The notes beneath the pieces are model-generated. The model saw only the letters and a list, made by a program, of their open reading frames with translations, did not search any database and was not told the origin of the DNA. DNA of 64,000 nucleotides from an uncultured Alphaproteobacteria bacterium (GTDB taxonomy: Bacteria; Pseudomonadota; Alphaproteobacteria; CAAHEQ01; UBA3637): positions 10,894 through 74,893 of the forward strand of contig CANQUX010000006.1 of the NCBI GenBank assembly GCA_947627155.1, given 5' to 3'. The translations under genes were made by a program, and so were the position numbers. This document shows positions 21,597-55,327 of the stretch, piece after piece; positions within the stretch are counted from its first letter, which is position 1; each line of letters begins with the position of its first letter.

Positions 21597-21753
21597 AAAC
21601 GTACCTTTAATGCAACGCGGTTTCAGGGGCAAAATTACCCTTAAAAAGTGTTGAAACAGGCTTTTTATAACCTATTGATATTGCATTAAATTTACCTCAA
21701 AATAAAATTTTTTTGAAAAAATGCAAAAAAAGTGTTGCAAAAAACGTACGTTT
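21597..21753. promoter_or_regulatory. Invertible promoter cassette 1 (B arm gene-proximal, predicted OFF/low)
   Basis: AAACGTACCTTTAATGCAAC 21597-21616 and GTTGCAAAAAACGTACGTTT 21734-21753; TATACT just outside on the - strand. Confidence 0.8.
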
Positions 21754-21883
21754 TTGCAACGCCATATTTTATTGATATTTCAATAACTTAATAAATGATT
21801 TTTCTTGTTATTTAAGAGATGTTTCAAACTTTATAATATATTGATTTTATTGTTTTTTATAAAAATGCATTCTGCAACCTAAA

Positions 21884-21962
21884 AAACAACAGGCAGGGCG
21901 GAAACTCAAGAAAAACCGCCCTGCCCGCCGTTCTTTGCCTTAAAAAGACACACTTTTTAAAG
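21884..21962 (-). terminator. Conserved pilin 3' double hairpin and intrinsic terminator
   Basis: AACGGCGGGCAGGGCGG...CCGCCCTGCCTGTTGTT followed by a T-run; homologous copies after pilins 36933 and 37794. Confidence 0.75.
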
Positions 21963-21973
21963 CGAATAACCCG

Positions 21974-22417
21974 TTAGCTTTGTTTGAATTCAACTCCGGT
22001 CATTTTTGTACCGCTGCTGCATCCGTCATTTTTACCCAAAATGCTGGCACCGGCTTTGCAAACGGCTTCTGTCGGGAAATCAATATCTAATTTTACAATA
22101 CCTTTTTTCAAATCCTCATCAGAAGAAGTGCTGTAAGTGATTGTAGCACCGCCCGGTGTTTTAGAAGTGCCGGAATTAACTAAACCGGAAGAGGCTAATG
22201 TGGGGGCTGTCCAATTATTGCCCATGGCACTCGCCGTTTGATAGCCGGAATAAACAACCACAGCAAATTTATTAGCCATATCCAAAGCTTCATTCGCGCG
22301 ATAGCGGTTCATAGCCATGGAATAGCCGGCAATACCGCCAATCGATAAAACGCCGATAATGGCTAAAACGCCCAGCATTTCAACCATTGACCGACCAGAT
22401 TCATTTGTTTTTTTCAT
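21974..22417 (-). CDS. Short type IV (major-type) pilin A
   Basis: MKKTNESG|RSMVEMLGVLAIIGVLSIGGIAGY; C-terminal Cys pair; 147 aa. Confidence 0.88.
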   Translation of the reverse strand: MKKTNESGRSMVEMLGVLAIIGVLSIGGIAGYSMAMNRYRANEALDMANKFAVVVYSGYQTASAMGNNWTAPTLASSGLVNSGTSKTPGGATITYSTSSDEDLKKGIVKLDIDFPTEAVCKAGASILGKNDGCSSGTKMTGVEFKQS

Positions 22418-22530
22418 TTTGTTTTCCTTTCATTTATGTTGTTTTTTAAGCTCCCCGAGCCAAAAAACGTTTATTTTTAAGGCGTTAATGCCTTGTTTTC
22501 CCTATCGAGAGAAATTTTCTCTCAACAAAT
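22418..22530 (-). promoter_or_regulatory. Conserved structured pilin 5' leader
   Basis: Near-identical to 36820-36932 and 37683-37793; three hairpins. Confidence 0.65.
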
Positions 22531-22540
22531 AGCATAAATT

Positions 22541-22696
22541 AAACGTACGATTTTTGCAACACTTTTTTTTGATTTTTTCAAAAAAAATTTAATTTAAGCC
22601 GAAATAATTGATTTTTTGAGTGTTTTTAAGGGGTGATTTTTTGCTTTTTGCAGGCAAATTTTGCCCCGGAAACCGCGTTGCATTAAAGGTAGGTTT
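22541..22696. promoter_or_regulatory. Invertible promoter cassette 2 (A arm gene-proximal, predicted ON)
   Basis: AAACGTACGATTTTTGCAAC 22541-22560 and GTTGCATTAAAGGTAGGTTT 22677-22696; gives TTGCAA-17-TATGCT toward pilin A. Confidence 0.82.
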
Positions 22697-22784
22697 TATT
22701 TGTGCAACTCATATCAAAATAAATACCCTGATGAAAGTCAATCAACAGTTTGAAAAATGATAAAATTGAAAAATTTTAAAACAA

Positions 22785-22823
22785 AAAATAAAATCCGCTT
22801 CTTTTAAAAGCGGATTTTATTTT
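22785..22823. terminator. Bidirectional-type intrinsic terminator (copies near 23765, 26973, 27953)
   Basis: AAAAATAAAATCCGCTT-CTTTTA-AAGCGGATTTTATTTTT. Confidence 0.75.
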
Positions 22824-22915
22824 TGAAGCTTAAATGCCGTTTAAGCTTTTTCTTGGTATTACGAAAGATTGTTATCGTGATTTTTCAAATTTCCTCTTTG
22901 ATTAATGTTAAAATC

Positions 22916-23614
22916 TTAACTCTCTTTAACTTCCGTAATTTTGTTACCCGATGAAGCAAAAAGGTGTTGCGACATATCTTTTCCGGCATTTTCTGTGGCT
23001 TCGTTCATGGCTTTGAAGGCTTTTTCCCAAAATTGCGGAGAAAGAGGAAGACCACCTGCATCTTTAAAAATCTCTTGAACTATATTGGAGGTGAATATTT
23101 GTTGTGCCGAAAGGGCACCGGGCAATTCCAAGGCGGAAGCATAAATGCTCGCGGCTTGCAACCATTTATTATCCCAGCTTTTTTTGCCGTCGGAAACAGC
23201 CAAATCCGTTGCTTTTTCCTGATAAAATTTTAATTTTTCATAGGCTTGCTTTTTACCGGCACTATCTAAATCTTTCCACTTTCTGATACCCGAAAGCAAC
23301 CCCGATTTTCCATTACCGCGTTCATCAACATATCCGTAGAACTGTTTGGCAGCATTGATTGATTTTGAATAAATCATTCGACCCAGCTTATTTAAAAGGC
23401 TATTATCTTTTTCAATTTTTTCAATTTTTATATCAAAAACGCCGGCATCGGCCGGATTGTTTGAAAAAAGCTTATTGGAAGGAATATCCGACAATCTGAT
23501 ATGGAAATCTTCTTTATTATCAATATCATCAGCCACAGTTTTATATTCGTTATCCGTTAAGCCGATAATATCTTTGGCAATAATTTCATAAGCTCTTTTA
23601 GTTGATGTTAACAT
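22916..23614 (-). CDS. Hypothetical protein, paralog of the 379-aa protein (copy 1)
   Basis: 232-aa ORF with AAGGAG RBS; shares GLL.G.RK.KD.D and KWL.AA......LPG with the 25541 gene. Confidence 0.75.
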   Translation of the reverse strand: MLTSTKRAYEIIAKDIIGLTDNEYKTVADDIDNKEDFHIRLSDIPSNKLFSNNPADAGVFDIKIEKIEKDNSLLNKLGRMIYSKSINAAKQFYGYVDERGNGKSGLLSGIRKWKDLDSAGKKQAYEKLKFYQEKATDLAVSDGKKSWDNKWLQAASIYASALELPGALSAQQIFTSNIVQEIFKDAGGLPLSPQFWEKAFKAMNEATENAGKDMSQHLFASSGNKITEVKES

Positions 23615-23668
23615 GTAATCTCCTTATCTTTTGTTAAAATATTAACCCGATAATGGAGAGTATACATT

Positions 23669-23688
23669 AAACGTGCGTTTTTTGCAAC
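23669..23688 (-). promoter_or_regulatory. Solo, core-mutated switch site forming a fixed promoter (copy at 27857-27876)
   Basis: - strand TTGCAA-aaaacgcacgtttaatg-TATACT; core GCAC instead of GTAC; no partner repeat seen. Confidence 0.65.
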
Positions 23689-23818
23689 GATTTTTTCGAC
23701 ACTTTTCAATCACTTATAAAAAAAATAAAAGAGAGGAAAAAAAAACATTTTAAAACAAGAAATAAATAAAATCCGCTTCTTTTAAAAGCGGATTTTATTT
23801 TTGAAACTTAAATGCCGT

Positions 23819-25528
23819 TTAAGCATTTTCGGCTCTTTGCGGCCTTTCAGCAGGCAAACTCTCCTCCGGAACCGATTGCGCATTTTGTGCTAAAACCGAT
23901 GTCGGGGGCGTTTGTTGAGTTTGCTTCCCCTGTTCCGGCGATAATGCTTTTTCTTCTCTTACCGCAGGTTTTTCAGGTTGTTGGTTTCTCCCCAGATCGG
24001 GTAAGGCGGGTTTTTTGCTTTCATCGCGTTCAAGCGTGATGTTTTTTCCTTCATATTCTTCTCTTACCGCAGGTTTTTCACCTGATTGCTGTTGCGACTG
24101 TTCGGGTAAGGCGTTTTTTTTGCTTTCATCGCGCTCAATCGTAATGGTTTTTTCTTCATATCCGGGCAGTTTTTTCGTATTATATGAATATCTGTGATTA
24201 ACCCGAACGCCGGCAATGGCATACCCTTTGGAAGAAACGGCATTTTCAACACCTTTAATGTTTTCAACAACCGCGTTTTTGTCATTTTCGTTCAATTCAC
24301 CGTTCCCTAACGCATGAACAGATTGCCGGAAATCACCTTTCATAATTTCTTGTGCCGACCCAAGCGATTTTTTGGTGCGTTTTCCGTTTTCTATCTGATA
24401 CACAATTTCTTTGGGATGATACAATTCTCTGGCTTGAAGCATTTTATAGGCATATATTTCGCTGTTGGAGCAAGGTTTTCCCTCTTTGGTGGCTCCAATA
24501 GGCAATTTCCCTTCTTTTTCAAGCTGTTGCATATTTTTAACCATTGTATCCACTTGTTTTTGCGTGATCAGTTTTCTTTTAACAAACCCGGCTAACCGTG
24601 CTTGTGCATGAGCCACGTCCGCCTCTGAATATTGATGAACGACAATCGTTTCATGGGGACGCGGCATCGGACGAGTTCTTTCGATGTCATTTAAAGGACG
24701 AGCCCGATCGTTAATGTCTTTGACTTCTATTTTTGATAAAGTTATTTTAGGTTTAACAACCTTATCTAACCGATCTTTCAATTGATTTTTCATTTCATCA
24801 GAAACAGAAGCATTGGTAATATCATCCGAGGTAACGCAGTATGTACCGTTTTTTGAATGACGAGACATAAAACCGTGATCAAATTTTTCAAGCGTTTTAC
24901 CGATGGTTGCCATTTCTTTGGTATAATCACAGGTATCAAGATAATAATGAACAGCCGTTTTTACACCTTGTCCGGCAAACGAATCAATCATACTTTTAGA
25001 AAGTGTTTCCTGATTTTTATAACAGGGTAAACTTGCAATAACATTCGGAAAATTTTCCAATTCTTTTCCGATAATTCCCCGATTGACCGCCTGCTCCCAT
25101 TTAATGCGATCACCCGCAGCGTTTTCTAAATAAGAAGCATCATTCGAATATGTATATTCGGGCATTGTTTTGTTAAAGATTGTCTTCATATAATGAACTT
25201 TGGCAACGGCATTTGCTTCTTGTTGCATCGCCTGACGCGCAATTTGCCGTTGTTGCATACTCACCTGTCGAGCAATCGGATCATTCGGAGAAATTCCACT
25301 CGGAACGGCAACCTGATTCAGTGCCATCGCAGGTAAAATACCCTGTTGAACCCCTTCTTCCAAAGTTAAAGATTGCTTTGTACGGCGGTTGATAAAACGA
25401 GATTGATTATTTTCAACAACCCATTGATAACCGTTTTGGTTAGCATTCAGCAAAACAATATTTTGCCAATAGAAAAAATCATTTAATTGCTGTAATGCAT
25501 TATTTTGAGCTTGAGGTGTATCAGCCAT
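23819..25528 (-). CDS. Hypothetical protein with C-terminal internal repeat (copy 1)
   Basis: 569 aa; AGGAGG RBS; IT.ERDESKK.ALP...EKPAVREE occurs twice. Confidence 0.8.
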   Translation of the reverse strand: MADTPQAQNNALQQLNDFFYWQNIVLLNANQNGYQWVVENNQSRFINRRTKQSLTLEEGVQQGILPAMALNQVAVPSGISPNDPIARQVSMQQRQIARQAMQQEANAVAKVHYMKTIFNKTMPEYTYSNDASYLENAAGDRIKWEQAVNRGIIGKELENFPNVIASLPCYKNQETLSKSMIDSFAGQGVKTAVHYYLDTCDYTKEMATIGKTLEKFDHGFMSRHSKNGTYCVTSDDITNASVSDEMKNQLKDRLDKVVKPKITLSKIEVKDINDRARPLNDIERTRPMPRPHETIVVHQYSEADVAHAQARLAGFVKRKLITQKQVDTMVKNMQQLEKEGKLPIGATKEGKPCSNSEIYAYKMLQARELYHPKEIVYQIENGKRTKKSLGSAQEIMKGDFRQSVHALGNGELNENDKNAVVENIKGVENAVSSKGYAIAGVRVNHRYSYNTKKLPGYEEKTITIERDESKKNALPEQSQQQSGEKPAVREEYEGKNITLERDESKKPALPDLGRNQQPEKPAVREEKALSPEQGKQTQQTPPTSVLAQNAQSVPEESLPAERPQRAENA

Positions 25529-25540
25529 TATATCCTCCTG

Positions 25541-26680
25541 TTATTCATCACGACCGTTATTTGTATTCGTGCCGATAGTTTTTATTTGGATATCATTTGA
25601 ATCTCCTTCAATTTCGGCCGTAATATTTTCCGCATTGTCAAAACGCATTTTATGTTCTTGTCTGTTTTCTTCTGCATCAGGTGTTATTTTGCTGACCGGA
25701 TGATCTTGGCGATTAATGTCATGATAGACGTCAGGATGAATGTCACGATAATCTTCTTCATGATTATTGACTTCGGTTCTCACATTGTCATCAATTGTCG
25801 GATATAAATCATTTGAATGATCCGGTTCGACAACTTGTTGAACTTCGGTGCCGACTTTTAAGAATTGATAATAAGTAGAAATATCCTGATTATTCGGTAC
25901 CGGCGGCACAGGAACCGGTTGAGGAATCGGTTGAGGAACCGGTTGATCATTGACATTTGTTGCTTCTAACTCTCCTTTTGCTTTTGCGAGTGAATCAAAG
26001 ACGGCTTTACGCATGGCACCTTGGTTTGTTCGCGGCAGAACGGAGGTGCTTGAAAATAATAACGCAGCGCCGTCGTTTGCTTCGGAAGCATTAAATCCTT
26101 TTCCTTCGGTATGAAAATCTTGAATGGATTTCATACCCGGTAATCCCATGTGTACGGATAAAATATAAGCGGCACGCAACCATTTTTGAGAACCATTGTC
26201 TTCTTTTGAGGCTTGTTGCATCATGCCATCCAGCTTTTCCAAAACATCTTTTTGCGTTTCTTTATCCATATCTTTAAACTTTCTAAGACCGTTTAAAAGA
26301 CCGGGAATTTTATCACCGAATTTATCTGTTCCGCCGTAAACATTATGATAAATGTTATTTCGGCTCGGTGAAGAGGTTTCTTTATTCGTCATATTGAAGA
26401 GAGTGTCTAAAAAAGTTGAAGAATCAGTCCGCGGAACAATTAAATCTTCTTTTGAAATATTATTCGAATAAAAACCGCTTTCCGGAATTTTTAATTCAGA
26501 CAGCTTGATCGGATCCGTTAAATCGAGTTTATCGGCTTGTTCTTTCGGAACACCACAGAAAGCCAATAAAATTGCACAGGTTTTTTCACCGACTCCGTCT
26601 TGTGAACCACTGAACACACCGCCGATTGCATTAGAAAATGCTTCTACCGTATCATAGAAATGTTGGTCAATACTTGCCAT
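25541..26680 (-). CDS. Hypothetical protein with PQP linker (copy 1)
   Basis: 379 aa; GAAAGGA RBS; first gene behind cassette 3. Confidence 0.8.
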   Translation of the reverse strand: MASIDQHFYDTVEAFSNAIGGVFSGSQDGVGEKTCAILLAFCGVPKEQADKLDLTDPIKLSELKIPESGFYSNNISKEDLIVPRTDSSTFLDTLFNMTNKETSSPSRNNIYHNVYGGTDKFGDKIPGLLNGLRKFKDMDKETQKDVLEKLDGMMQQASKEDNGSQKWLRAAYILSVHMGLPGMKSIQDFHTEGKGFNASEANDGAALLFSSTSVLPRTNQGAMRKAVFDSLAKAKGELEATNVNDQPVPQPIPQPVPVPPVPNNQDISTYYQFLKVGTEVQQVVEPDHSNDLYPTIDDNVRTEVNNHEEDYRDIHPDVYHDINRQDHPVSKITPDAEENRQEHKMRFDNAENITAEIEGDSNDIQIKTIGTNTNNGRDE

Positions 26681-26728
26681 TTTTTTATCCTTTCAAAAAA
26701 GTTAACCCCCTGTCGGGTATTATACAAT

Positions 26729-26884
26729 AAACGTACGATTTTTGCAACACTTTTTTTTGATTTTTTCAAAAAAAATTTAATTTAAGCCGAAATAATTGAT
26801 TTTTTGAGTGTTTTTAAGGGGTGATTTTTTGCTTTTTGCAGGCAAATTTTGCCCCGGAAACCGCGTTGCATTAAAGGTAGGTTT
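26729..26884. promoter_or_regulatory. Invertible promoter cassette 3 (duplicate of cassette 2 interior; A arm proximal, predicted ON)
   Basis: - strand TTGCAA-aaatcgtacgtttattg-TATAAT; sits at the duplication junction. Confidence 0.8.
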
Positions 26885-27103
26885 TATTTGTGCAACTCAT
26901 ATCAAAATAAATACCCTGATGAAAGTCAATCAACAGTTTGAAAAATGATAAAATTGAAAAATTTTAAAACAAAAAATAAAATCCGCTTCTTTTAAAAGCG
27001 GATTTTATTTTTGAAGCTTAAATGCCGTTTAAGCTTTTTCTTGGTATTACGAAAGATTGTTATCGTGATTTTTCAAATTTCCTCTTTGATTAATGTTAAA
27101 ATC

Positions 27104-27802
27104 TTAACTCTCTTTAACTTCCGTAATTTTGTTACCCGATGAAGCAAAAAGGTGTTGCGACATATCTTTTCCGGCATTTTCTGTGGCTTCGTTCATGGCT
27201 TTGAAGGCTTTTTCCCAAAATTGCGGAGAAAGAGGAAGACCACCTGCATCTTTAAAAATCTCTTGAACTATATTGGAGGTGAATATTTGTTGTGCCGAAA
27301 GGGCACCGGGCAATTCCAAGGCGGAAGCATAAATGCTCGCGGCTTGCAACCATTTATTATCCCAGCTTTTTTTGCCGTCGGAAACAGCCAAATCCGTTGC
27401 TTTTTCCTGATAAAATTTTAATTTTTCATAGGCTTGCTTTTTACCGGCACTATCTAAATCTTTCCACTTTCTGATACCCGAAAGCAACCCCGATTTTCCA
27501 TTACCGCGTTCATCAACATATCCGTAGAACTGTTTGGCAGCATTGATTGATTTTGAATAAATCATTCGACCCAGCTTATTTAAAAGGCTATTATCTTTTT
27601 CAATTTTTTCAATTTTTATATCAAAAACGCCGGCATCGGCCGGATTGTTTGAAAAAAGCTTATTGGAAGGAATATCCGACAATCTGATATGGAAATCTTC
27701 TTTATTATCAATATCATCAGCCACAGTTTTATATTCGTTATCCGTTAAGCCGATAATATCTTTGGCAATAATTTCATAAGCTCTTTTAGTTGATGTTAAC
27801 AT
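27104..27802 (-). CDS. Hypothetical protein (copy 2 of 22916..23614)
   Basis: Identical translation. Confidence 0.75.
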   Translation of the reverse strand: MLTSTKRAYEIIAKDIIGLTDNEYKTVADDIDNKEDFHIRLSDIPSNKLFSNNPADAGVFDIKIEKIEKDNSLLNKLGRMIYSKSINAAKQFYGYVDERGNGKSGLLSGIRKWKDLDSAGKKQAYEKLKFYQEKATDLAVSDGKKSWDNKWLQAASIYASALELPGALSAQQIFTSNIVQEIFKDAGGLPLSPQFWEKAFKAMNEATENAGKDMSQHLFASSGNKITEVKES

Positions 27803-28006
27803 GTAATCTCCTTATCTTTTGTTAAAATATTAACCCGATAATGGAGAGTATACATTAAACGTGCGTTTTTTGCAACGATTTTTTCGACACTTTTCAATCA
27901 CTTATAAAAAAAATAAAAGAGAGGAAAAAAAAACATTTTAAAACAAGAAATAAATAAAATCCGCTTCTTTTAAAAGCGGATTTTATTTTTGAAACTTAAA
28001 TGCCGT

Positions 28007-29716
28007 TTAAGCATTTTCGGCTCTTTGCGGCCTTTCAGCAGGCAAACTCTCCTCCGGAACCGATTGCGCATTTTGTGCTAAAACCGATGTCGGGGGCGTT
28101 TGTTGAGTTTGCTTCCCCTGTTCCGGCGATAATGCTTTTTCTTCTCTTACCGCAGGTTTTTCAGGTTGTTGGTTTCTCCCCAGATCGGGTAAGGCGGGTT
28201 TTTTGCTTTCATCGCGTTCAAGCGTGATGTTTTTTCCTTCATATTCTTCTCTTACCGCAGGTTTTTCACCTGATTGCTGTTGCGACTGTTCGGGTAAGGC
28301 GTTTTTTTTGCTTTCATCGCGCTCAATCGTAATGGTTTTTTCTTCATATCCGGGCAGTTTTTTCGTATTATATGAATATCTGTGATTAACCCGAACGCCG
28401 GCAATGGCATACCCTTTGGAAGAAACGGCATTTTCAACACCTTTAATGTTTTCAACAACCGCGTTTTTGTCATTTTCGTTCAATTCACCGTTCCCTAACG
28501 CATGAACAGATTGCCGGAAATCACCTTTCATAATTTCTTGTGCCGACCCAAGCGATTTTTTGGTGCGTTTTCCGTTTTCTATCTGATACACAATTTCTTT
28601 GGGATGATACAATTCTCTGGCTTGAAGCATTTTATAGGCATATATTTCGCTGTTGGAGCAAGGTTTTCCCTCTTTGGTGGCTCCAATAGGCAATTTCCCT
28701 TCTTTTTCAAGCTGTTGCATATTTTTAACCATTGTATCCACTTGTTTTTGCGTGATCAGTTTTCTTTTAACAAACCCGGCTAACCGTGCTTGTGCATGAG
28801 CCACGTCCGCCTCTGAATATTGATGAACGACAATCGTTTCATGGGGACGCGGCATCGGACGAGTTCTTTCGATGTCATTTAAAGGACGAGCCCGATCGTT
28901 AATGTCTTTGACTTCTATTTTTGATAAAGTTATTTTAGGTTTAACAACCTTATCTAACCGATCTTTCAATTGATTTTTCATTTCATCAGAAACAGAAGCA
29001 TTGGTAATATCATCCGAGGTAACGCAGTATGTACCGTTTTTTGAATGACGAGACATAAAACCGTGATCAAATTTTTCAAGCGTTTTACCGATGGTTGCCA
29101 TTTCTTTGGTATAATCACAGGTATCAAGATAATAATGAACAGCCGTTTTTACACCTTGTCCGGCAAACGAATCAATCATACTTTTAGAAAGTGTTTCCTG
29201 ATTTTTATAACAGGGTAAACTTGCAATAACATTCGGAAAATTTTCCAATTCTTTTCCGATAATTCCCCGATTGACCGCCTGCTCCCATTTAATGCGATCA
29301 CCCGCAGCGTTTTCTAAATAAGAAGCATCATTCGAATATGTATATTCGGGCATTGTTTTGTTAAAGATTGTCTTCATATAATGAACTTTGGCAACGGCAT
29401 TTGCTTCTTGTTGCATCGCCTGACGCGCAATTTGCCGTTGTTGCATACTCACCTGTCGAGCAATCGGATCATTCGGAGAAATTCCACTCGGAACGGCAAC
29501 CTGATTCAGTGCCATCGCAGGTAAAATACCCTGTTGAACCCCTTCTTCCAAAGTTAAAGATTGCTTTGTACGGCGGTTGATAAAACGAGATTGATTATTT
29601 TCAACAACCCATTGATAACCGTTTTGGTTAGCATTCAGCAAAACAATATTTTGCCAATAGAAAAAATCATTTAATTGCTGTAATGCATTATTTTGAGCTT
29701 GAGGTGTATCAGCCAT
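28007..29716 (-). CDS. Hypothetical protein (copy 2 of 23819..25528)
   Basis: Identical translation. Confidence 0.8.
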   Translation of the reverse strand: MADTPQAQNNALQQLNDFFYWQNIVLLNANQNGYQWVVENNQSRFINRRTKQSLTLEEGVQQGILPAMALNQVAVPSGISPNDPIARQVSMQQRQIARQAMQQEANAVAKVHYMKTIFNKTMPEYTYSNDASYLENAAGDRIKWEQAVNRGIIGKELENFPNVIASLPCYKNQETLSKSMIDSFAGQGVKTAVHYYLDTCDYTKEMATIGKTLEKFDHGFMSRHSKNGTYCVTSDDITNASVSDEMKNQLKDRLDKVVKPKITLSKIEVKDINDRARPLNDIERTRPMPRPHETIVVHQYSEADVAHAQARLAGFVKRKLITQKQVDTMVKNMQQLEKEGKLPIGATKEGKPCSNSEIYAYKMLQARELYHPKEIVYQIENGKRTKKSLGSAQEIMKGDFRQSVHALGNGELNENDKNAVVENIKGVENAVSSKGYAIAGVRVNHRYSYNTKKLPGYEEKTITIERDESKKNALPEQSQQQSGEKPAVREEYEGKNITLERDESKKPALPDLGRNQQPEKPAVREEKALSPEQGKQTQQTPPTSVLAQNAQSVPEESLPAERPQRAENA

Positions 29717-29728
29717 TATATCCTCCTG

Positions 29729-30868: not shown

Positions 30869-30916
30869 TTTTTTATCCTTTCAAAAAAGTTAACCCCCTG
30901 TCGGGTATTATACAAT

Positions 30917-31072
30917 AAACGTACGATTTATGCAACACTTTTTTTTAAAATTTTGAAAAAAAATTTTTTTAAGGCACAATTTTTTGATTTTTAAAGGTTT
31001 TTTACTTGTTTGTCTGGCTTTTTGCAAGTGCTTGAAAAGTGTCGAAAAAATCGTTGCATTAAAGGTACGTTT
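30917..31072. promoter_or_regulatory. Invertible promoter cassette 4 (A-type arm proximal to the 30868 gene, predicted ON)
   Basis: AAACGTACGATTTATGCAAC 30917-30936 and GTTGCATTAAAGGTACGTTT 31053-31072; TATAAT outside on the - strand; interior nearly identical to cassette 5. Confidence 0.8.
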
Positions 31073-31177
31073 TATTTATGCATATTCAAAAAATTTACCT
31101 TAACAAAGAAAGCCGAAAAAACGGCGTATAACCTTATTGATATTTTTATCTTTTTATTTTTTTTGACAAAAAAATGC

Positions 31178-31206: not shown

Positions 31207-31232
31207 GAAAAAAACAAAAACGGGGTAATTTT

Positions 31233-45886: not shown

Positions 45887-45944
45887 ACAATTGCCCGCTT
45901 TTTGAAAATAAAGGCGGGCTTTTTCATCAAAAGGGAAAAAGAAA

Positions 45945-47621
45945 ATGGCATCGTATCAATATATTTATGTGATGAAAGATTTGTGTAAAACTTTTCCGGG
46001 CGGCAAAGAGGTTTTAAAGCATATTTGGCTTTCTTTTTTCCCGGGCGCCAAAATCGGCGTTATCGGGCCGAACGGTGCCGGAAAATCAACGCTTATGAAA
46101 ATTATGGCCGGTCTTGATGAAGATTTTTCGGGCGAAGCTTTTGCCGCAGAGGGTGTTAAAGTCGGTTATTTACCGCAAGAACCGCAACTCGATCCCAATA
46201 AAAACGTTATGGAAAACATTATGGACGGCGTGGGTCCCGTGCGCGATTTAATGAAGCGGTTTGAAGAAGTGAATATGAAGTTTGCCGATCCCGATGCCGA
46301 TATGGAGGCTCTTTTAGCCGAACAAGCGGAATTGCAGGAAAAAATTGATGCCTGCAACGGGTGGGAAATTGAACGAACGGTTGAAATTGCCATGGATGCG
46401 TTACGCTGTCCGCCGGCCGAGGCCGATGTGACGAAACTGTCGGGCGGAGAAAAACGGCGCGTGGCTTTATGTCGGCTGTTATTATCCAAGCCCGATATGT
46501 TGTTGCTTGATGAGCCGACCAATCATTTAGATGCCGAATCGGTTGCGTGGTTACAAATTTTCTTGAAAAATTATGAAGGAACGGTTGTTATGGTCACGCA
46601 CGACAGATATTTTCTTGATAACGTGACCGGCTGGATTTTGGAAATGGATCGCGGCGAAGGAATTCCCTTTGAAGGCAATTATACAAGCTGGTTAGAGCAA
46701 AAAGAAAAGCGTTTGGCGCAAGAACAAACGGCAGAAAGCAATCGGCAAAAAACATTAAAAGAAGAGCTGGAATGGGTGCGTCAATCGCCGAAAGCCCGAC
46801 AAGCGAAATCGAAAGCGCGCATCACGGCTTATGAAGAATTGTTGAAAAAATCAACGGAAAAAGTGCCCGATGTGGCGCAAATTGTCATTCCGGCCGGGCC
46901 GCGATTAGGGCAAGTGGTTTTAGAAGCCGATTCGCTTTCCAAAGCCTTCGGCGATAAGCTTTTGTTCGAAAATTTATCCTTTCATTTACCGGCCGGCGGG
47001 ATTGTGGGTATTATCGGGCCGAACGGTGCCGGTAAAACAACGCTTCTGAAAATTATTACAGGCGCCGAAAAGCCGGACAGCGGCAGTTTTCGTTTAGGCG
47101 AAACGGTGCAACTCGGCTATGTGGATCAATCACGCGATGCGTTGGATAACAACAAAACCGTTTGGCAGGAAATATCGGGCGGACAAGATATATTAACGCT
47201 CGGCAAACGGGAAATCAACTCCCGGGCTTATGCCGCTCAATTTAATTTCAAAGGCCCCGATCAGCAAAAAAAGGTGGGTATGCTGTCGGGCGGTGAACGC
47301 AATCGGGTTCATCTGGCAAAAATGTTAAAATCGGGCGCGAATGTTCTGTTGCTCGATGAGCCGACAAACGATTTGGATGTTGATACCTTGCGCGCTTTGG
47401 AAGAAGCGTTAATGGATTTTCCGGGCTGTGCCGTTATTACCTCGCACGATCGCTGGTTTTTAGATCGCTTGGCAACGCATATTTTAGCCTTTGAGGGCAA
47501 CAGTCAAGTGGTGTTTTTTGAAGGCAACTATGCCGAATACGAGCAAGATAAAAAGCGCCGTTTGGGTGTTGATGCCGATCAACCGCATCGCATTAAATAT
47601 AAGCCCGTTACGCGCTCTTAA
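45945..47621 (+). CDS. ettA: ABC-F translational throttle EttA
   Basis: Two GPNGAGK / LSGGE / LLDEPTN sets; [10 protein letters not shown]; [16 protein letters not shown]. Confidence 0.93.
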
Positions 47622-47805
47622 TGAAGAAAAAACGGCTGAAAAAAGTGATTTTACTCACATAAGGCATAGAGGTTGCCGGTGTGAAAAAAGGGAAACCGGC
47701 AGGAAACAAAAACGGTCGTTTTGCTACCTATAGTTGTGTAAATTATGAATTATTAATTAATTTTTTATTTATTTGTGAATATCTGAGATAATGTGGTATT
47801 CTTTC

Positions 47806-48123
47806 TTATTTTCGGCGGGAAGTGCTATCCCGTGAAACGTGGGATAGCGCGGTGTGCCGAAAATAAAGCGATTCGAGGGGATATCACTCTATTATCTATA
47901 TGGCACTCTCTTTTTTTCCCTATCGGCGGATGTGGGGCGGCGCAATTGTGCCGCTCAACTATGGGCCGATAGAGGGAAAGGAACGGCAGGCTATCATTTT
48001 GGTAAAAGTGGTAAAGACAAGAGATATTTTTAGCCTCTTTGTTTATGAGTGGCACTTTCTCTTATTTTCGGCGGGAAGTGCCGGCTCGTGGAACGTGAGC
48101 CGGCGCGATGTGCCGAAAATAAG
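47806..48123. repeat. Cluster of three REP-like hairpin repeats (47806-47866, 47920-47972, 48061-48123)
   Basis: TCGGC...GCCGA outer stems, conserved internal loop, variable inner stems. Confidence 0.7.
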
Positions 48124-48298
48124 AAAAATAAATGATGCTGCTTTTTCTGCTTGACAATGGTATGAAAAGCTTTTATTCTGGAAGCAAGGCAAGTGATGTG
48201 TGCCCCGAGGCATGACAACCTCTTTAAGCGAATCCTTGAAAAAGGATAAAAAAATTTAGCTCTTTTGGCTTTTGCCACAAGAGAATCAGGTCAACTGG

Positions 48299-48412
48299 CC
48301 GGAAGGTAGTAAAATAAACCTTTTGGTCAATATACTGCGCTATTTCGCTTAAATAGTTGTCAACTTCCGGTCGCCTCTCATCAAGGCGATTTTTTTTGAA
48401 TATGCATCAAAA
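48299..48412. repeat. About 114-bp non-coding repeat, inverted copy at 55328-55441
   Basis: ATGCATAT.CAAAAAAAATCGCCTTGATGAGAGG.GACCG.AAGTT...GCAGTATATTGACCAAAAGG shared; both on the distal side of a cassette. Confidence 0.75.
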
Positions 48413-48569
48413 AAACGTACGTTTTTTGCAACACTTTTTTTGCATTTTTTCAAAAAAATTTTATTTTGAGGTATTTTTAATGTAATATCAATGGTTTATA
48501 ACAAGGCTGTTTCACCAAAATTTGAGGGTAATTTTAACCCTAAAACTGCGTTGCATTAAAGGTACGTTT
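48413..48569. promoter_or_regulatory. Invertible promoter cassette 7 (B arm proximal, predicted OFF/low)
   Basis: AAACGTACGTTTTTTGCAAC 48413-48432 and GTTGCATTAAAGGTACGTTT 48550-48569, then TATGCT; interior homologous to cassette 1. Confidence 0.82.
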
Positions 48570-48604
48570 AATTTATGCTATTTGCATTGAAAGGAAGATG
48601 AAAA

Positions 48605-49969
48605 ATGAGCAATAAAATGAAGAAAAAACAAGTTCAAAATCAAGCGCAACAAGGCCGTTCAATGGTTGAAATGCTGGGTGTTTTGGCCGTTATCGGCGTT
48701 ATCTCACTCGGTGGTATATCAGGCTATAGAATGGCAATGAATCGATATCAGGCAAATCAAATCGCGAATGAAATTAACCTGATGCGCACCGATGCAAAAA
48801 TGAAAGCCGCAATGAAAGCGGCGCAAGGAACGGGAAAGTTGATGTTGGGGGAACCGTATGATTCGGGACACTTAAATTTCGGCAGTAATTATGCCGTTGA
48901 TTTTGATTTTATAGATATTAAATCGGAGGATGAGGGCGTAACGGAAGCGGGATATTATATAAAAATATCAGGCATTTCGGCGGGCGTGTGTAAGCCGTTG
49001 GTCACCTTGTTAAACGGCATGAATGAAACGGTTGCATTAAAGGTCAATGAGGTGGAATATAGCGCGGATTCAAGCACTGATTTCTGCACCGAAGAAAGCA
49101 ATAATGCGTTAGAAGTAGATTTTTCAACGGAAAAAATAATCAGCACTAGCGGAGAGGAACCACCGGAAGAACAAGGCGATGAACCGCAAGATGAGCCCGT
49201 ATGCGATGATGAAACGTGCGCGGGAGGAGAGTGTCAAGCAGATGGAACATGTAAATGCAATGATGAAAATGAATATTGGACGGGTTACGGGTGCACAGCT
49301 TGTCCTGAAGGGGCGCGACAAGAAGATGGAACATGTGAATGCACGGAAGAGAGCCATTTAAAAGGCAGTGCGTGCATCACGTGTCCGGAAGAAGCGCCAT
49401 GGAGTGATGCGGTGGACGATTGCGTTTGTAAAGATGCGGGTAAATATTGGACCAGTGACGGGAAATGCATTGATAATGTGTGCAATAGTGGACAACCTTG
49501 CTCTGATGATGAGGGCGGTGATCCAAAATATTGTGATATGAGTGGTATTTCTTGCGATAATGGGGTTCCGAGCGCAAGTCGTGGCACATGCACACCGGTA
49601 ACAGATAGTAGTTATAGCAAAGTAGAGGTAGAAAATAGTGCAGGAGGTAAAAAAACGATTTATGTGTCAAAATCAAATAATTTTGATTGGTGGGCAGCGG
49701 ATGCGTTTTGCCGAGCATTGGGAAGGAAATTAGGCAAGCCTATGCATTTGGTGAGTTTAGGAGATTTGGGGTGCATATGGGGAAATGGTTGCCCAACAGG
49801 CTCATATGGCAAGTCATTGGTAAGTAAAGGACTAAACGGATTGGGGTGGACAAGTACGCCCTATAATCACGATAATACTTCCTGCCGCGCGGACGGCGTC
49901 GACCTCAATCGCGGTTCCGTCCACTACCTCTATCGCGACGACGACTACTACTACGCCTTATGTGAGTGA
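48605..49969 (+). CDS. Long type IV pilin-like adhesin: prepilin N-terminus, Cys-rich stalk, C-type-lectin-like C-terminus
   Basis: G|RSMVEMLGVLAVIGVISLGG; CxxCP repeats; WWAADAFCRALG..LVSLGDL..WTST..ALCE. Confidence 0.82.
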   Translation: MSNKMKKKQVQNQAQQGRSMVEMLGVLAVIGVISLGGISGYRMAMNRYQANQIANEINLMRTDAKMKAAMKAAQGTGKLMLGEPYDSGHLNFGSNYAVDFDFIDIKSEDEGVTEAGYYIKISGISAGVCKPLVTLLNGMNETVALKVNEVEYSADSSTDFCTEESNNALEVDFSTEKIISTSGEEPPEEQGDEPQDEPVCDDETCAGGECQADGTCKCNDENEYWTGYGCTACPEGARQEDGTCECTEESHLKGSACITCPEEAPWSDAVDDCVCKDAGKYWTSDGKCIDNVCNSGQPCSDDEGGDPKYCDMSGISCDNGVPSASRGTCTPVTDSSYSKVEVENSAGGKKTIYVSKSNNFDWWAADAFCRALGRKLGKPMHLVSLGDLGCIWGNGCPTGSYGKSLVSKGLNGLGWTSTPYNHDNTSCRADGVDLNRGSVHYLYRDDDYYYALCE

Positions 49970-50024
49970 GGCCGGCCGGCTCTTTCCTGATGCCCCGCCT
50001 TTAAGACTTCTATTCAGCGGGGCA
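49862..50024 (+). other. Putative DGR variable region with IMH-like GC run and downstream hairpin
   Basis: 22 of 26 codons in 49880-49957 end in C; GGCCGGCCGGC 49970-49980; stem TGCCCCGC/GCGGGGCA 49991-50024. Confidence 0.65.
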
Positions 50025-50081
50025 CCTCTCCTCTTTTTTCGGCAAGAGGTGAAAATGTGCAATACTGCCGCTCATTTCCCC

Positions 50082-50267
50082 CTATCGGCCCATAGCGACA
50101 GACGACTAAACGCTGTCTGTCACATCCGCCGATAGAGGGAAAGAGCCGTTAACAACACAATTTTTCAACCATTAAGAGAAAAAATTATCTTTTGGCCTTG
50201 CTTCTTTTCTCTGATTCTCAGCGGGTGTGGAGCAACATAATTTAAGCCGTTCCACATCCGCCGATAG
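50082..50267. repeat. Two REP-like hairpin repeats (50082-50135, about 50220-50267)
   Basis: CTATCGGC...CACATCCGCCGATAG, same family as 47920-47972. Confidence 0.7.
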
Positions 50268-50445
50268 AGAAAAAAGAAATACTGATTCACATGGAAAATC
50301 AGTCAAAATTCAGTATCCAAGAAACAATTTCATCGTTCCCCGATAGTAAAAAAACAATAATGCCGCCTTATTTTACGCCCTGCCGATTAATATACCGCCT
50401 TGCTTCACATATATGCAAATAATAAAATCAACTATATGCAGGAAA

Positions 50446-52030: not shown

Positions 52031-53614
52031 ATGAGTGAAAATTTAAACAATATTGTTTCAAAACGGCGTACGTTTGCCATTATTTCCCACCCCGATGCCG
52101 GTAAAACCACTTTAACCGAAAAATTATTGCTGTTCGGGGGCGCTATCAATCAGGCGGGAGCGGTAAAAGCGCGCGGCGAAAACAGACGGGCACATTCCGA
52201 CTGGATGAAAGTTGAACAAGAACGCGGTATTTCCGTTGCCTCATCGGTCATGAGTTTTGATTACGGCGGTTGTGCGTTTAATTTGTTGGATACGCCCGGG
52301 CATGAAGACTTTTCGGAAGATACGTATCGCGTGTTAACGGCAGTCGATTCGGCCGTTATGGTGATTGACTGCGCCAAAGGCATTGAGGCACAAACAAAAA
52401 AGCTGTTTGAAGTTTGTCGTTTGCGAGATATTCCCATCATTACCTTTATTAACAAGCTGGATCGCGACGGACAGGAACCGTTTGCGCTGCTGGAAGAAAT
52501 TGAGCAGACTTTGGCGCTTGATGTCACGCCGGCCGTGTGGCCGATCGGTATGGGTCGCGACTTTAAAGGCTGTTTTAATTTATTGACCGACAGTTTAAAT
52601 CTGTTTGAAAAAGGCGAAAAAGGAGCTTTGCCGAAAGAGGGCGCCCATATTGAGGGAATTGATGATGAAAAACTGGATGCCCTTTTGCCGGCCGATCAGG
52701 TGGCGGCGTTGCGTGAAGGCGTTGAAATGGCGCGCGGATTATGTCCGGCATTTGATAAGCAAGCCTATTTGGAGGGCTCGTTAACGCCTGTTTTCTTCGG
52801 GTCGGCCGTTAATAATTTCGGCGTTCGGGAATTATTAGAGGCGCTCATTGCTTTTGCGCCTGCGCCCAAAGAGCAAAAAACACCCGAACGAACGGTTTTG
52901 CCGACGGAAGAAAAAGTATCGGGTTTTGTGTTTAAAATTCAAGCAAATATGGATCCCAAACATCGCGATCGCATTGCTTTTATGCGTTTATGTTCGGGGC
53001 ATTTCAAGCGCGGTATGAAATTAACGCATTTACGCACACAAAAACAAGTGATTTTGCATAATCCCGTTATGTTTTTGGCGCAAGACAGAGCCTTGGCGGA
53101 AGAAGCCTTTGCCGGCGATATTATCGGCCTGCCCAATCATGGCGGATTAAGAATCGGCGATGTATTTTCGGAAGGTGAAACGTTAACGTTTAAAGGAATT
53201 CCCTCCTTTGCGCCGGAATTATTGAAAAAAGTGCGCGCGCAAGATCCGTTAAAAGCCAAACATTTGGCCAAAGCGCTTGATCAAATAGCCGAAGAAGGCG
53301 GTGCGAGCATTTTTAAGCCCGTTCACGGGTTCGAGTGGATTGTGGGCGTTGTGGGCGCGTTGCAGTTTGAAATTTTAGCCGATCGTATTCGCACGGAGTT
53401 TGATATTCCCGTTATTTTTGAGCCGACTTCTTATTACACGGCGCGCTGGGTGCAAGGCAATAAAGAGCAGCTGCAAAAGTTTGAATCGGCAAATGCCGTG
53501 ACTTTGGCAACGGATCACGACGGTGATACGGTTTTTTTGGCGCGCAATGCTTGGCATTTAAACAAGGCGCAGGAAGATTATCCCGATTTACGGTTTTTAA
53601 AAGTTAAAGAATAA
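52031..53614 (+). CDS. prfC: Peptide chain release factor 3
   Basis: RRTFAIISHPDAGKTTLTEK, DTPGHEDFSEDTYR, FKIQANMDPKHRDR. Confidence 0.97.
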   Translation: MSENLNNIVSKRRTFAIISHPDAGKTTLTEKLLLFGGAINQAGAVKARGENRRAHSDWMKVEQERGISVASSVMSFDYGGCAFNLLDTPGHEDFSEDTYRVLTAVDSAVMVIDCAKGIEAQTKKLFEVCRLRDIPIITFINKLDRDGQEPFALLEEIEQTLALDVTPAVWPIGMGRDFKGCFNLLTDSLNLFEKGEKGALPKEGAHIEGIDDEKLDALLPADQVAALREGVEMARGLCPAFDKQAYLEGSLTPVFFGSAVNNFGVRELLEALIAFAPAPKEQKTPERTVLPTEEKVSGFVFKIQANMDPKHRDRIAFMRLCSGHFKRGMKLTHLRTQKQVILHNPVMFLAQDRALAEEAFAGDIIGLPNHGGLRIGDVFSEGETLTFKGIPSFAPELLKKVRAQDPLKAKHLAKALDQIAEEGGASIFKPVHGFEWIVGVVGALQFEILADRIRTEFDIPVIFEPTSYYTARWVQGNKEQLQKFESANAVTLATDHDGDTVFLARNAWHLNKAQEDYPDLRFLKVKE

Positions 53615-53634
53615 GTATTTGATTTTTCAATTTT

Positions 53635-53688
53635 CTATCGGCGGGTGGGACAGACGGCTTTATGTCGTCTGTCGCTATGGGCCGATAG
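53635..53688. repeat. REP-like hairpin repeat
   Basis: CTATCGGCGGGTGGG-ACAGACGGC-TTTAT-GTCGTCTGT-CGCTATGGGCCGATAG. Confidence 0.7.
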
Positions 53689-53898
53689 GGAAAAAAGAGA
53701 GTGCTGCGTTACTTCCTCCTGCCAATAAAGGAAAATGCCGTATCATAAAAAATCTCTTTAAAAACATTATTTTGTTAATAACACATCTTTAAAAACAAAA
53801 CGCATGCGCACCAAAAGAGAATTGATTAAAAAAAGCAATAAAAAAATCCGCTCTCGCTAAACAAGAGCGGATAAAAGAGCAAATTTAATTAAAAATTA

Positions 53899-55122
53899 TT
53901 ATCTGCCCCCATTAGCACTGCTAAATACGACATTGCCCGGCTGATTCTTATCGTCAGACTGATTCTTTGTGTTGTCGTCAGCAATCTTATCCCAATTTTC
54001 ATCAAAAACGCTTTTGCTATCGAACCCTTCTAAGAGTTTCTTATAATCCAACATCTCAGAACTGCGACTGTTCTTTCTAAGTGTGTCTCTGACTCCGCCA
54101 TTGCTCGCAGACGGCTCCTCCTTCGCCACCGCTACAGAATTACCATCACTAAATCTGCCAACGCTATGGGGAGCTAAATATGCGCTCGGTTCTGCCAAAG
54201 CCGGGCGATTACTAAAAGACAACTGTTCCGTGTTGTAATTGTCATCTCCGGTAATAAATTCTTTGACATTGTTAACAACTTTATCGACACCGTCAGAAAT
54301 GTTTTCGACAACTTCTTCGGTATTCACTTTCAATCTCCCTATCCAGCCGGGTTTGTCTTCTTCATAGCGTTTCTGCGCTTCTTGAAACTCTTTTTCCTGT
54401 CCTGTTTCCTTTGCATATTCTTCTAATTTATTCCAATCAGCATTATGCATACGCTTATAATATGAGGAAGAAAACATTTCTGCCGTTTCTTGTCCAAGCG
54501 GAAGCTCAGAATTTGATAAAAGGGAGACAGGAGCGCCACTCCATCCGGGTTTATATCCGTCAGGATTGTACGGAACATCAATGGTTGCGTGGCGCAGAAA
54601 TCCAAATTCATCATACTCCACCGTTATACCATTCCCACTTTCGCGTTGAACAATATTGGTCTCTTCATTATATGTATATTTGCGTTTCTCTTCCTCTTCT
54701 GCCGATTTGACATCTTCTTTATTTTCGGGATTCGTTATAAGCACTGATTCTTTCTTACGGGCTTCTTCTTCCTCACGGCGTTCTGTCTCGCAGCGTTCTT
54801 TCAATGCTTGAAACTCCGATGCACTCATAAATTTTGCTAATTCGTCCCAATTAGCATTTTCCATTCGTTTACTAAGTTTGGAAGTAACCCGTTCCGCAAT
54901 TTTATTATAAATATGCGTACCCGGCTTAATATGAGCAAAATAGAATAATTTTTCCCCATCTTCTGTTTTTTCATATCTCGGAGCACGAATTGCAATATCC
55001 AGAAGCCTTCCATCATACTGATCATAATAAGCAAATACACAACCTACTCTTTCCCTGGTAACAACACCGTCATTATACCATACTTCATGATTGCCGGATT
55101 TAATTTCATGATTTTCTGCCAT
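53899..55122 (-). CDS. Hypothetical acidic protein with two-fold internal repeat
   Basis: 407 aa; AAGGAG RBS; KRMENANWDEL / KRMHNADWNKL repeat. Confidence 0.75.
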   Translation of the reverse strand: MAENHEIKSGNHEVWYNDGVVTRERVGCVFAYYDQYDGRLLDIAIRAPRYEKTEDGEKLFYFAHIKPGTHIYNKIAERVTSKLSKRMENANWDELAKFMSASEFQALKERCETERREEEEARKKESVLITNPENKEDVKSAEEEEKRKYTYNEETNIVQRESGNGITVEYDEFGFLRHATIDVPYNPDGYKPGWSGAPVSLLSNSELPLGQETAEMFSSSYYKRMHNADWNKLEEYAKETGQEKEFQEAQKRYEEDKPGWIGRLKVNTEEVVENISDGVDKVVNNVKEFITGDDNYNTEQLSFSNRPALAEPSAYLAPHSVGRFSDGNSVAVAKEEPSASNGGVRDTLRKNSRSSEMLDYKKLLEGFDSKSVFDENWDKIADDNTKNQSDDKNQPGNVVFSSANGGR

Positions 55123-55164
55123 TTTAAAACTCCTTTTATGTTTATGACTGTCCTATTATACATT

Positions 55165-55327
55165 AAACGTACCTTTAATTCACCGTTTTTTTAGACAACT
55201 TTCCTTAAAAACGAGGGTTTCACAGGGAGGGCAAAAACTCAATAAAAATCAAAAAAGTATGGAAAAAACAAAAAAATGCTAAAAAGATAAAAAACATTAA
55301 AAAAAGTGTTGCAAAAAACGTACGTTT
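55165..55327. promoter_or_regulatory. Invertible promoter cassette 8 (degenerate B arm proximal, predicted OFF)
   Basis: AAACGTACCTTTAATTCACC 55165-55184 and GTTGCAAAAAACGTACGTTT 55308-55327; current state GTGAAT-17-TATAAT, flipped state TTGCAA-17-TATAAT. Confidence 0.78.

Follow-up and report, generated by a model that had tools for sequence, protein, structure and literature searches.

The inversion of many promoters by one master invertase is the textbook mode of surface variation in gut Bacteroides. Here we describe what is probably a system of the same kind in an uncultured alphaproteobacterium (GenBank assembly GCA_947627155.1), built from cassettes of about 156 base pairs (bp) that are bounded by two inverted arms, A and B, and mostly adjoin predicted type IV pilin-like genes. 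The cassettes came to attention in a stretch of 64,000 nucleotides (nt) of contig CANQUX010000006.1 (positions 10,894 to 74,893, forward strand), hereafter the window, for which an earlier note had proposed a family of invertible promoters of the Bacteroides kind. Mpi-family invertases in the genome, an arm core close to the Mpi repeat, a cassette found reversed in a related genome, paralogous loci that disagree in arm and the lack of target-site duplications all support that proposal, and we regard the cassettes as probable invertons of the Mpi type.

Several further systems resemble these cassettes in part. The fimS element of Escherichia coli, acted on by FimB and FimE, is likewise a short promoter segment whose inversion controls a fimbrial subunit gene, as proposed here, but it relies on tyrosine recombinases, occupies a single locus of ~314 bp, carries the whole promoter inside and serves chaperone-usher fimbriae. 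Hin/hix and Gin/gix combine a small serine invertase bearing a C-terminal helix-turn-helix (HTH) with imperfect palindromes around a 2-bp crossover and A/T runs in each half-site; they differ in inverting one segment of ~1–3 kb per element with the help of a Fis-bound enhancer, and form no dispersed promoter family. Type IV pilus proteins are diversified by inversion in the Moraxella Piv system and in the R64 shufflon (Rci), but there the inverted segments are coding, lie at one locus and are turned by Piv/IS110-like or tyrosine recombinases. Finally, the Correia elements of Neisseria, of about 100–155 bp, have terminal inverted repeats and many dispersed copies and can contribute promoter elements; they show a TA target-site duplication and insertion polymorphism. 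Unlike them, the cassettes described here have no duplication, keep a fixed register with the neighbouring gene and provide an instance of reversal in place.

The closest relative is the Mpi system of Bacteroides fragilis, with which the genome shares the recombinase family (matches to NCBIfam NF009949 at or near the equivalog cut-off) and, as we propose, the service of many loci in trans. According to the excerpt of the source, deletion of mpi locks all seven promoters in B. fragilis (PMC10403206). Mpi-controlled promoters of this species carry repeats of the form ARACGTTCGTN, and the capsule promoters of B. intestinalis, 183–186 bp long, are bounded by the repeat GTTCGTTTAA, which overlaps the Mpi repeat (PMC8375218, in excerpt); the repeats given there for PVR7-12 are nearly the same as the arm core found here, AAACGTACGTTTAA. 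As here, a short invertible segment, of 183–186 bp as opposed to 156 bp, stands before surface genes. In B. intestinalis the transcription start is placed inside the proximal repeat (PMC8375218, same excerpt), whereas in our cassettes the -10 apparently lies outside the segment and a -35-like hexamer is found on both arms. The excerpted survey of B. fragilis NCTC 9343 gives 28 invertible regions (PMC7641763), compared with 91 cassettes in 1.56 Mb here. The system also differs from that of Bacteroides in its alphaproteobacterial host, in its five paralogous invertases and in its targets, which are type IV pilin-like genes and not capsule operons.

We see a mechanism of the known Mpi kind in which the host, the huge type IV pilin-like target family and the number and density of cassettes are new, together with the five paralogous invertases, the palindromic TA centre of the arms and the apparently split promoter. 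No published description of invertible pilin promoters in Alphaproteobacteria was found in a literature search that lay outside the supplementary tables of inverton surveys (e.g., PMC11602134); the papers listed for Mpi, serine recombinases, invertible DNA and type IV pili concern Bacteroides, Clostridioides and other organisms.

Cassettes in the window and across the genome

When the window was searched with the B-arm pattern, allowing up to 3 mismatches, 18 matches were returned where shuffles gave an expectation of 0.05; the A-arm pattern gave 13 matches, against 0.01 expected. Sixteen of the 18 B-pattern matches pair into eight cassettes of 156, 157 or 163 bp, at exactly the coordinates that the earlier note had assigned to them. 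The remaining two, absent from its list, are unpaired arms whose core is mutated to GCAC. The elements are as follows:

21597-21753, cassette 1, 157 bp; B arm (21597-21616) facing the pilin-like gene 20434-21594, A arm at 21734-21753
22541-22696, cassette 2, 156 bp; A arm (22541-22560) facing the gene of a 147-residue pilin-like protein; flipped relative to cassettes 5 and 6
26729-26884, cassette 3, 156 bp; identical to cassette 2; A arm facing the first copy of a gene of 379 codons; left arm at the junction of a tandem duplication
30917-31072, cassette 4, 156 bp; divergent 379-codon gene on the A-arm side, ptsP on the B-arm side
36654-36809, cassette 5, 156 bp; B arm facing a pilin-like gene of 149 codons
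37517-37672, cassette 6, 156 bp; B arm facing a pilin-like gene of 166 codons
48413-48569, cassette 7, 157 bp; B arm facing a pilin-like gene of 454 codons
55165-55327, cassette 8, 163 bp; degenerate B arm (GGTGAAT) facing a non-pilin gene of 407 codons
23669-23688, minus strand, solitary A-like arm with core GCAC, followed by TATACT and upstream of an open reading frame (ORF) for 232 amino acids (aa); duplicate at 27857-27876

Aligned with one another, the eight cassettes share one layout, in which the outer end AAACGTAC is followed by the inner arm A, reading GATTTTTGCAAC or GTTTTTTGCAAC, an invariant T8-GA-T6-C-A8 tract, a variable half, the inner arm B, reading GTTGCATTAAAG, and the outer end GTACGTTT. 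Both arms and the T/A-tract beside arm A are invariant, and it is the half beside arm B that varies. The solitary GCAC arms are preceded by an interior of the B-end type and have no partner arm, and resemble half cassettes in a locked state. Beyond the A arm of cassettes 1 and 6, the flanking sequence is a repeat of the inner arm, giving a palindrome of ~28 bp around GTAC (21732-21762 and 37507-37539), which scores as a 12–13-bp hairpin with a T-run (13 bp at cassette 6, downstream of the preceding pilin-like gene) and could be a possible terminator for the upstream pilin-like gene; solitary palindromes of this sort are present elsewhere in the genome. At its gathering thresholds, Rfam finds three tRNAs only between window positions 20000 and 57000, with no match at any cassette.

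Beyond the window, the assembly (1.56 Mb in 32 contigs, about 41% G+C, 95.8% complete) contains 200 arm matches that make up 91 paired cassettes of 154–164 bp, most of them 156 (54) or 157 bp (31) long and the others 154 (1), 155 (2), 163 (2) or 164 bp (1). The cassettes described in the earlier note are thus real, while the scale of the family had been underestimated: it is not local, and the eight cassettes seen there stand against 91 genome-wide. On the plus strand the arm order is A..B in 49 cases, B..A in 36, AA and BB in 2 each and other in 2. A further 18 arms are unpaired, several of them at contig ends, and many contigs end inside a cassette. A search for exact 8-base cores gave 86 pairs 154–164 bp apart and no further arm types in this genome. 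Across the 89 cassettes that could be aligned (two within 40 nt of a contig end were omitted), both arms and the A-side tract are conserved at 90–99%, compared with 40–80% for the B-side interior.

The earlier note had also suggested scanning the genome and its relatives for arm pairs, and among 20 genomes of the same genus the arm motif is found in four, namely G014 (174 arms), G015 (56), G017 (35) and G019 (1). A few AAACGTTCGTTT pairs, 133–174 bp apart, are found in G002, G015 and G020, and many cassettes of G015 and G017 are of the A/A form. A third arm type (...GTGCACCAACTAGAC-GTAC-GTTT), paired with an A arm, occurs in G017 (C8:64189-64345) and G015 (C41:30-190; loci L106 and L115). As it has only a core of ~11 bp in common with the other arms, the minimal recombination site may be that core, and TTGCA may serve the promoter. 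No match to the exact B arm was found among JGI metagenome contigs.

Terminal inverted repeats, uniform size and 91 dispersed copies would also be expected of a Correia-like miniature inverted-repeat transposable element (MITE) that carries promoter parts and inserts either way round at AAAC/GTAC/GTTT-like targets. The many contigs that end in a cassette would fit such an element, as would the lack of cassette 8 in G017 and the lack of the cassette of G017 locus L098 in the genome studied here (G000), and the GTAC at both ends can be read as a 4-bp duplication. We nevertheless consider this reading highly improbable. Direct repeats flank 25, 21, 19, 0, 0 and 0 of the 89 aligned cassettes for k = 2, 3, 4, 5, 6 and 8, while shuffles gave 25.8, 20.9, 18.3, 0, 0.1 and 0, so that target-site duplications are no commoner than chance for k = 2 to 8. 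Conservation extends past the GTAC into the flank, in fixed register with the -10 and the gene start, and both presence/absence differences show extra sequence or a degenerate arm where a clean empty site (a single AAACGTACGTTT or GTAC) would be expected. No transposase is implied, five invertases are present, and a collection of viral contigs yielded 0 matches to the degenerate arm. Finally, the cassette that is reversed in G014 sits at exactly the same position, with an interior 93% identical.

Invertases, arm cores and reversed cassettes

The genome encodes six ORFs with a Resolvase domain, five of which are 197–244 aa long, carry a C-terminal HTH, have no internal stops and match NF009949, the 'master DNA invertase Mpi family serine-type recombinase', at 315, 289, 282, 272 and 265 bits (cut-off 272 bits). 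Among 14 control genomes, only that of Bacteroides thetaiotaomicron has a match to this model. The arm core, AAACGTACGTTTAA, is one central base (A for T) apart from the Mpi repeat quoted in the Bacteroides excerpt. In the 2003 Mpi paper the repeat reportedly has the form ARACGTWCGT. We propose that the segment of ~156 bp lying between inverted sites with GTAC at their centre (AAACGTAC...GTACGTTT) would be turned round in trans by one or more of the five Mpi-family serine invertases, which are the candidates for the acting enzyme.

One trace of such an event is found in the sister species G014. According to the earlier note, the lack of any flipped cassette in reads or related strains, together with equal expression of both states, would point to static operator pairs; cassette 4 is reverse-complemented at G014 locus L021. 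There, the left 145 bp (start of the 379-aa gene) match plus/plus at 90% and the right 157 bp (towards ptsP) plus/plus at 88%, while the cassette itself matches plus/minus at 93% (153 of 164 positions), with the strand switch inside the arms; wider synteny was confirmed on both flanks. A second case, within the genome, had been put forward in the earlier note and holds: the leader and 5' end of the pilin-like gene 21974-22417 share 93–94% identity with the corresponding parts of two opposite-strand genes, at 36933 and 37794, while cassette 2 matches cassettes 5 and 6 on the same strand (85%) and is therefore turned round relative to its gene. The cassette at G014 locus L048 is likewise flipped relative to one on contig C9 of G000. 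Outward flanks of paralogues with an identity of 90% or more, starting at the arm, form 82 pairs, of which 4 have opposite arms and 3 a hybrid arm, the other 75 having the same arm. Inversion has thus taken place in the past, both between species and between paralogues; that it is ongoing in cells we infer from the sequences.

Arms appear at other junctions as well. Cassettes 2 and 3 are identical because each begins one copy of a perfect tandem unit of 4188 bp (22541-26728 and 26729-30916, 0 mismatches), and where the units meet, the leader of the 379-aa gene passes into the cassette 2 interior, with the join among the arm's first 13 bases. This is the outcome that would be expected of unequal exchange between two arms, and suggests that arms of separate cassettes have recombined, that a circle was excised or that the assembly contains a loop. 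Each unit holds one cassette and ORFs of 232, 569 and 379 aa without a Pfam family; a Logan contig over the unit's end has a depth figure of 28, compared with about 9 in its neighbours, a figure that is not a copy number.

Further rearrangements were seen in the relatives. The cassette of G014 locus L152 (C117, 2462-2616) and that at C1:163016-163170 of G000 are orthologues, 97.5% identical and in the same orientation. They differ in three clustered bases of one inner arm, which make the difference between A type and B type, as if one arm had been converted by the other. In G015, contig C41 compared with window positions 24056-33500 has the block of the 379-aa gene inverted and displaced by ~6 kb relative to ptsP, with arms at or near the breakpoints; this hints that arms of different cassettes may also mediate larger rearrangements. 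Apparent flips of cassette 4 in G015 and G017, with the A arm near ptsP, were rejected and are not counted, as the neighbourhoods are rearranged and not orthologous: near ptsP, G017 has a pilin-like gene on the far side with the third arm type (...CACCAACTAGACGTACGTTT), and in G015 a different flank intervenes.

Several observations weigh against the inversion reading. Mpi-family genes are found in 20/20 genomes searched of the genus, 2/4 from other genera of the family and 0/16 from other families of the class; since only four of the 20 have the arm motif, the invertases are not specific to this cassette family, and the recombinase is older than the cassettes. The central dinucleotide is a palindromic TA here and TT in the Bacteroides repeat as excerpted. 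Orientation, moreover, is mostly conserved. The comparison with G014 covered 82 distinct cassettes from 70 loci, part of the genome; for 63 of them no match covered both flanks, and the flanks of 6 were too short (a stricter first pass had given only 2 two-flank matches). The 13 cassettes compared on two flanks between G014 and G000 comprise 10 in the same orientation, 1 flipped and 2 with differing arm type (the L152 cassette described above being one of these), with some of the matches being paralogous, and 75 of the 82 paralogous flank pairs are concordant in arm. Cassette 1 has the same orientation in G015, and the region of cassette 5 matches G014 on one strand over window positions 35541-36810. 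Logan contigs of runs X1, X3, X5 and X9 were placed on window positions 30500-50400, where the listed pieces stop at 30924 and 36673 or start at 31044, positions that each fall within an arm; none of these pieces spans a cassette, which makes them uninformative on mixed orientation in one population. Contig joints on opposite strands at 47864-50137 belong to another repeat, not to a cassette.

A mostly conserved orientation fits a switch strongly biased towards OFF and, equally, a mostly static element that is rarely flipped. In its strict form the latter would be a static regulatory module, two palindromic operator-like sites ~144 bp apart that were copied along with the pilin-like family, the flips being rare recombination accidents. 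It would account for the same orientation in 10 of 13 two-flank comparisons and 75 of 82 paralogous pairs and for the B arm being proximal at 72 of the 79 arm-fronted pilin-like ORFs. It would not account for five intact Mpi-family invertase genes, for an arm core that matches the excerpted Mpi repeat, for flip breakpoints that fall exactly in the arms at one orthologous and several paralogous loci, or for a tandem-duplication junction inside an arm. Nor would it explain why the distal arm is conserved at 90–99% though in most cases no gene lies beyond it: distal A arms equal proximal B arms in conservation despite 63 of 88 A sides having neither a -10 hexamer nor an ORF, a conservation that a pure promoter role leaves unexplained. 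We judge the static module distinctly unlikely.

A promoter apparently divided between arm and flank

The arms carry a -35-like hexamer, TTGCAT or TTGCAA, with a TAnnnT hexamer outside the cassette at a distance of 17 bp (18 bp at cassette 1). The earlier note had described this spacing, which we find in the window and could count genome-wide: TAnnnT lies 17–18 bp from the TTGCA of the arm on 73 of 88 B sides (TATGCT 48, TATACT 22, TATAAT 2, TACATT 1), including sides that face non-pilin genes, and on 6 of 88 A sides. These counts support the split-promoter anatomy that the note had proposed. The B arm of cassette 8 reads GGTGAAT and, as the note had remarked, has no -35.

In the mechanism we propose, the cassette would adjoin a fixed -10 (TATGCT, TATACT or TATAAT) and a leader that belongs to the gene of a surface protein, in most cases type IV pilin-like, and the gene-proximal arm would supply the -35-like TTGCA(A/T) 17–18 bp from that -10, so that inversion would exchange only the upstream half of the promoter. 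The A end would bring TTGCAA together with the highly conserved A-tract at about -39 to -46, resembling an UP element, and the B end TTGCAT behind mostly G+C-rich sequence. An A-proximal promoter would read (A)8-GTG-TTGCAA-17 bp-TATGCT, and the B-proximal promoter mostly reads CCC-N-GAA-N-C-N-GCG-TTGCAT-17 bp-TATGCT. The A-tract would correspond to the proximal UP-element consensus of E. coli. At 158 further promoter-like sites in the genome, picked on their hexamers only, positions -4 to -9 upstream of the -35 are 87–92% A+T, compared with a background of 69%. On the B side, -4, -5 and -9 are mostly occupied by G or C, bases that are rare there (4–8% per base) at the other sites. The A state fits this A+T-rich upstream pattern of the genome and the usual B state does not.

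Two apparently fixed promoters are of the A kind. At the position of cassette 8, G017 has no cassette and in its place a degenerate A-like arm with TTGCAA-17 bp-TATAAT behind an A-run, and before the 232-aa ORF the solitary arm 23669-23688 provides TTGCAA-17 bp-TATACT. Provided that the cassettes do invert, we lean towards A-proximal being the high state and B-proximal the low or off state, because of the A-tract upstream element and the locked A-like promoter in G017. If so, most of the ~80 controlled pilin-like genes would be silent and a few expressed; in the assembled consensus, 4–5 pilin-like genes would be up and the rest down. If only the -35 and upstream element are exchanged while the -10 stays in place, the switch would be graded and not all-or-none.

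On the promoter side, too, some points tell against a marked effect of inversion. Both arms carry TTGCA at equal spacing, and inversion may therefore alter expression little. The cassette 4/5 subfamily also has an A-run upstream of TTGCAT on its B side. A generic sigma-70 scan (at least 9/12 matches) does not call the arm promoters of cassettes 1, 2, 5 and 6, which counts against a strong promoter and is not a rejection of one.

Inversion could also be real and its logic different, with the B-proximal state expressing and most pilin-like genes on, or with the cassette acting mainly as an orientation-dependent terminator or insulator and not through its -35 and upstream element. Of the 79 pilin-like ORFs with an arm in front, 72 have B as the proximal one, TTGCAT-17-TATGCT could serve as a promoter, and hairpins with a T-run occur at the A arm of cassettes 1 and 6 and, in a small form, ~30 nt inside the B end of the consensus. 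We think this unlikely, given that the G or C found at -4, -5 and -9 on the B side is rare in other promoter-like sites, that the B arm of cassette 8 has no -35, that the fixed promoter of G017 is A-like, and that the A arm is proximal at 3 of 6 non-pilin genes as opposed to 4 of 74 pilin-like genes, which fits pilins that are mostly off.

A sigma-54 promoter in the B arm, with TTGCA as the -12 and a GG 10 nt upstream in some copies, was considered and rejected: the dinucleotide at the GG position is GG in only 22 of 89 cassettes (CG 28, TG 22, GA 8, AA 6, TA 3), and Sigma54_DBD has no match in the genome, which is 95.8% complete.

The genes behind the cassettes

We counted as pilin-like any ORF with the N-terminal motif G-x-S-[ML]-x-E-[ML]-x-G-[VI], and as facing it any arm within 330 nt. 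The genome has 86 such ORFs, of which 79 are faced by an arm (B in 72 cases, A in 5 and another in 2); seen from the 89 aligned cassettes, 70 of 88 B sides and 4 of 88 A sides lead to a pilin-like ORF. The genes next to the cassettes of the window are:

20434-21594, minus strand, pilin-like gene, 386 aa, N-terminus ...GRSMIEMLGVLAII..., downstream of cassette 1
21974-22417, minus strand, type IV pilin-like gene, 147 aa, proximal to an A arm
25541-26680, minus strand, 379-aa ORF without a Pfam family, first gene of a three-gene unit; second copy at 29729-30868
36933-37382, plus strand, pilin-like gene, 149 aa
37794-38294, plus strand, pilin-like gene, 166 aa
48605-49969, plus strand, pilin-like gene, 454 aa
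53899-55122, minus strand, 407-aa ORF, not pilin-like and without a Pfam family, downstream of cassette 8

Neither Pfam nor NCBIfam has a family that matches the pilin-like genes at E ≤ 0.01. At the N-terminus they have the features of a class III signal (G at -1, E at +5) and then a hydrophobic helix, and the motif ...GRSM(I/V)EMLGVLAII... is invariant in an alignment of 46 relatives. An AlphaFold2 model of the 147-aa protein (predicted local distance difference test score, pLDDT, of 81) has a helix over residues 7–65 followed by strands, and the top nine Foldseek matches in the PDB are type IV pilins, albeit weak ones (E 0.05–0.9, TM-score 0.30–0.49). The genome further provides a candidate prepilin peptidase (Peptidase_A24 match at C21:7783-8106) and candidate assembly ATPases (three T2SSE matches). 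On these grounds we call the genes predicted type IV pilin-like. Their family comprises 7242 proteins at E ≤ 0.001, every named one of which is a 'hypothetical protein [Alphaproteobacteria bacterium]'. By length, 66 of the 86 ORFs fall between 250 and 720 aa and 19 between 115 and 196 aa; the long ones would be fusions of a pilin-type N-terminus to large C-terminal parts of unknown fold.

The six non-pilin ORFs behind cassettes are A-proximal in three cases and B-proximal in three; five have a TATAAT or TATACT at that same distance from the arm. Among these is the 379-aa ORF, with TATAAT at a fixed offset from the A arm; its two copies are faced by the A arms of cassettes 3 and 4. The remaining one, ptsP, adjoins cassette 4 on its B side, with a start codon 160 nt beyond the B arm; it seems to have a conserved upstream region of its own, and we do not claim control of ptsP by this cassette. 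A cassette on contig C19 has short pilin-like genes with TATACT on both sides and would act as a toggle between them.

Taken as a whole, the most far-reaching reading is a genome-wide 'pilin lottery', in which ~90 Mpi-type invertons, the densest known at ~1 per 17 kb, swap the upstream half of a split promoter and each cell would show a small random subset of more than 80 pilin-like proteins; recombinase and site would have been taken from gut Bacteroidales, and the sites would also drive duplication and rearrangement of the pilin-like genes. We put this forward tentatively, as falling somewhat short of an even chance in its entirety. If the Mpi recombinase family and nearly its own site do work together in an alphaproteobacterium, the Mpi mechanism would cross phyla in the gut, the 91 cassettes, standing before ~8% of the coding capacity (an estimate from ORF lengths), would set a new upper bound for inverton density, and a very large unannotated protein family would gain its first functional handle.

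Concerning the habitat of the organism, runs X1-X4, labelled rabbit gut metagenome, contain 80–89% of the words sampled from window positions 35800-39000, and the relatives of the ptsP protein come from animal guts. Three ankyrin-repeat proteins are encoded inside 20 kb (window 18982-20430, 35845-36546 and 38414-39019), which is unusual for free-living bacteria and fits a host-associated life.

A second repeat family adjoins the A arm of many cassettes (in the window at 47750-48412 and 55328-55560), with about 29–49 copies in the genome. It consists of a hairpin element of ~60 nt (CTTATTTTCGGCGGGAAGTGC...GTGCCGAAAATAAG type, up to 49 copies) and a unit of ~260 nt (about 29 copies), which has TTGACA-17-TATTCT at its start and ends in a strong hairpin and T8 just before the arm. 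Rfam has no match to the family; the longer unit could be a small-RNA gene present in many copies or else a conserved 3' module.

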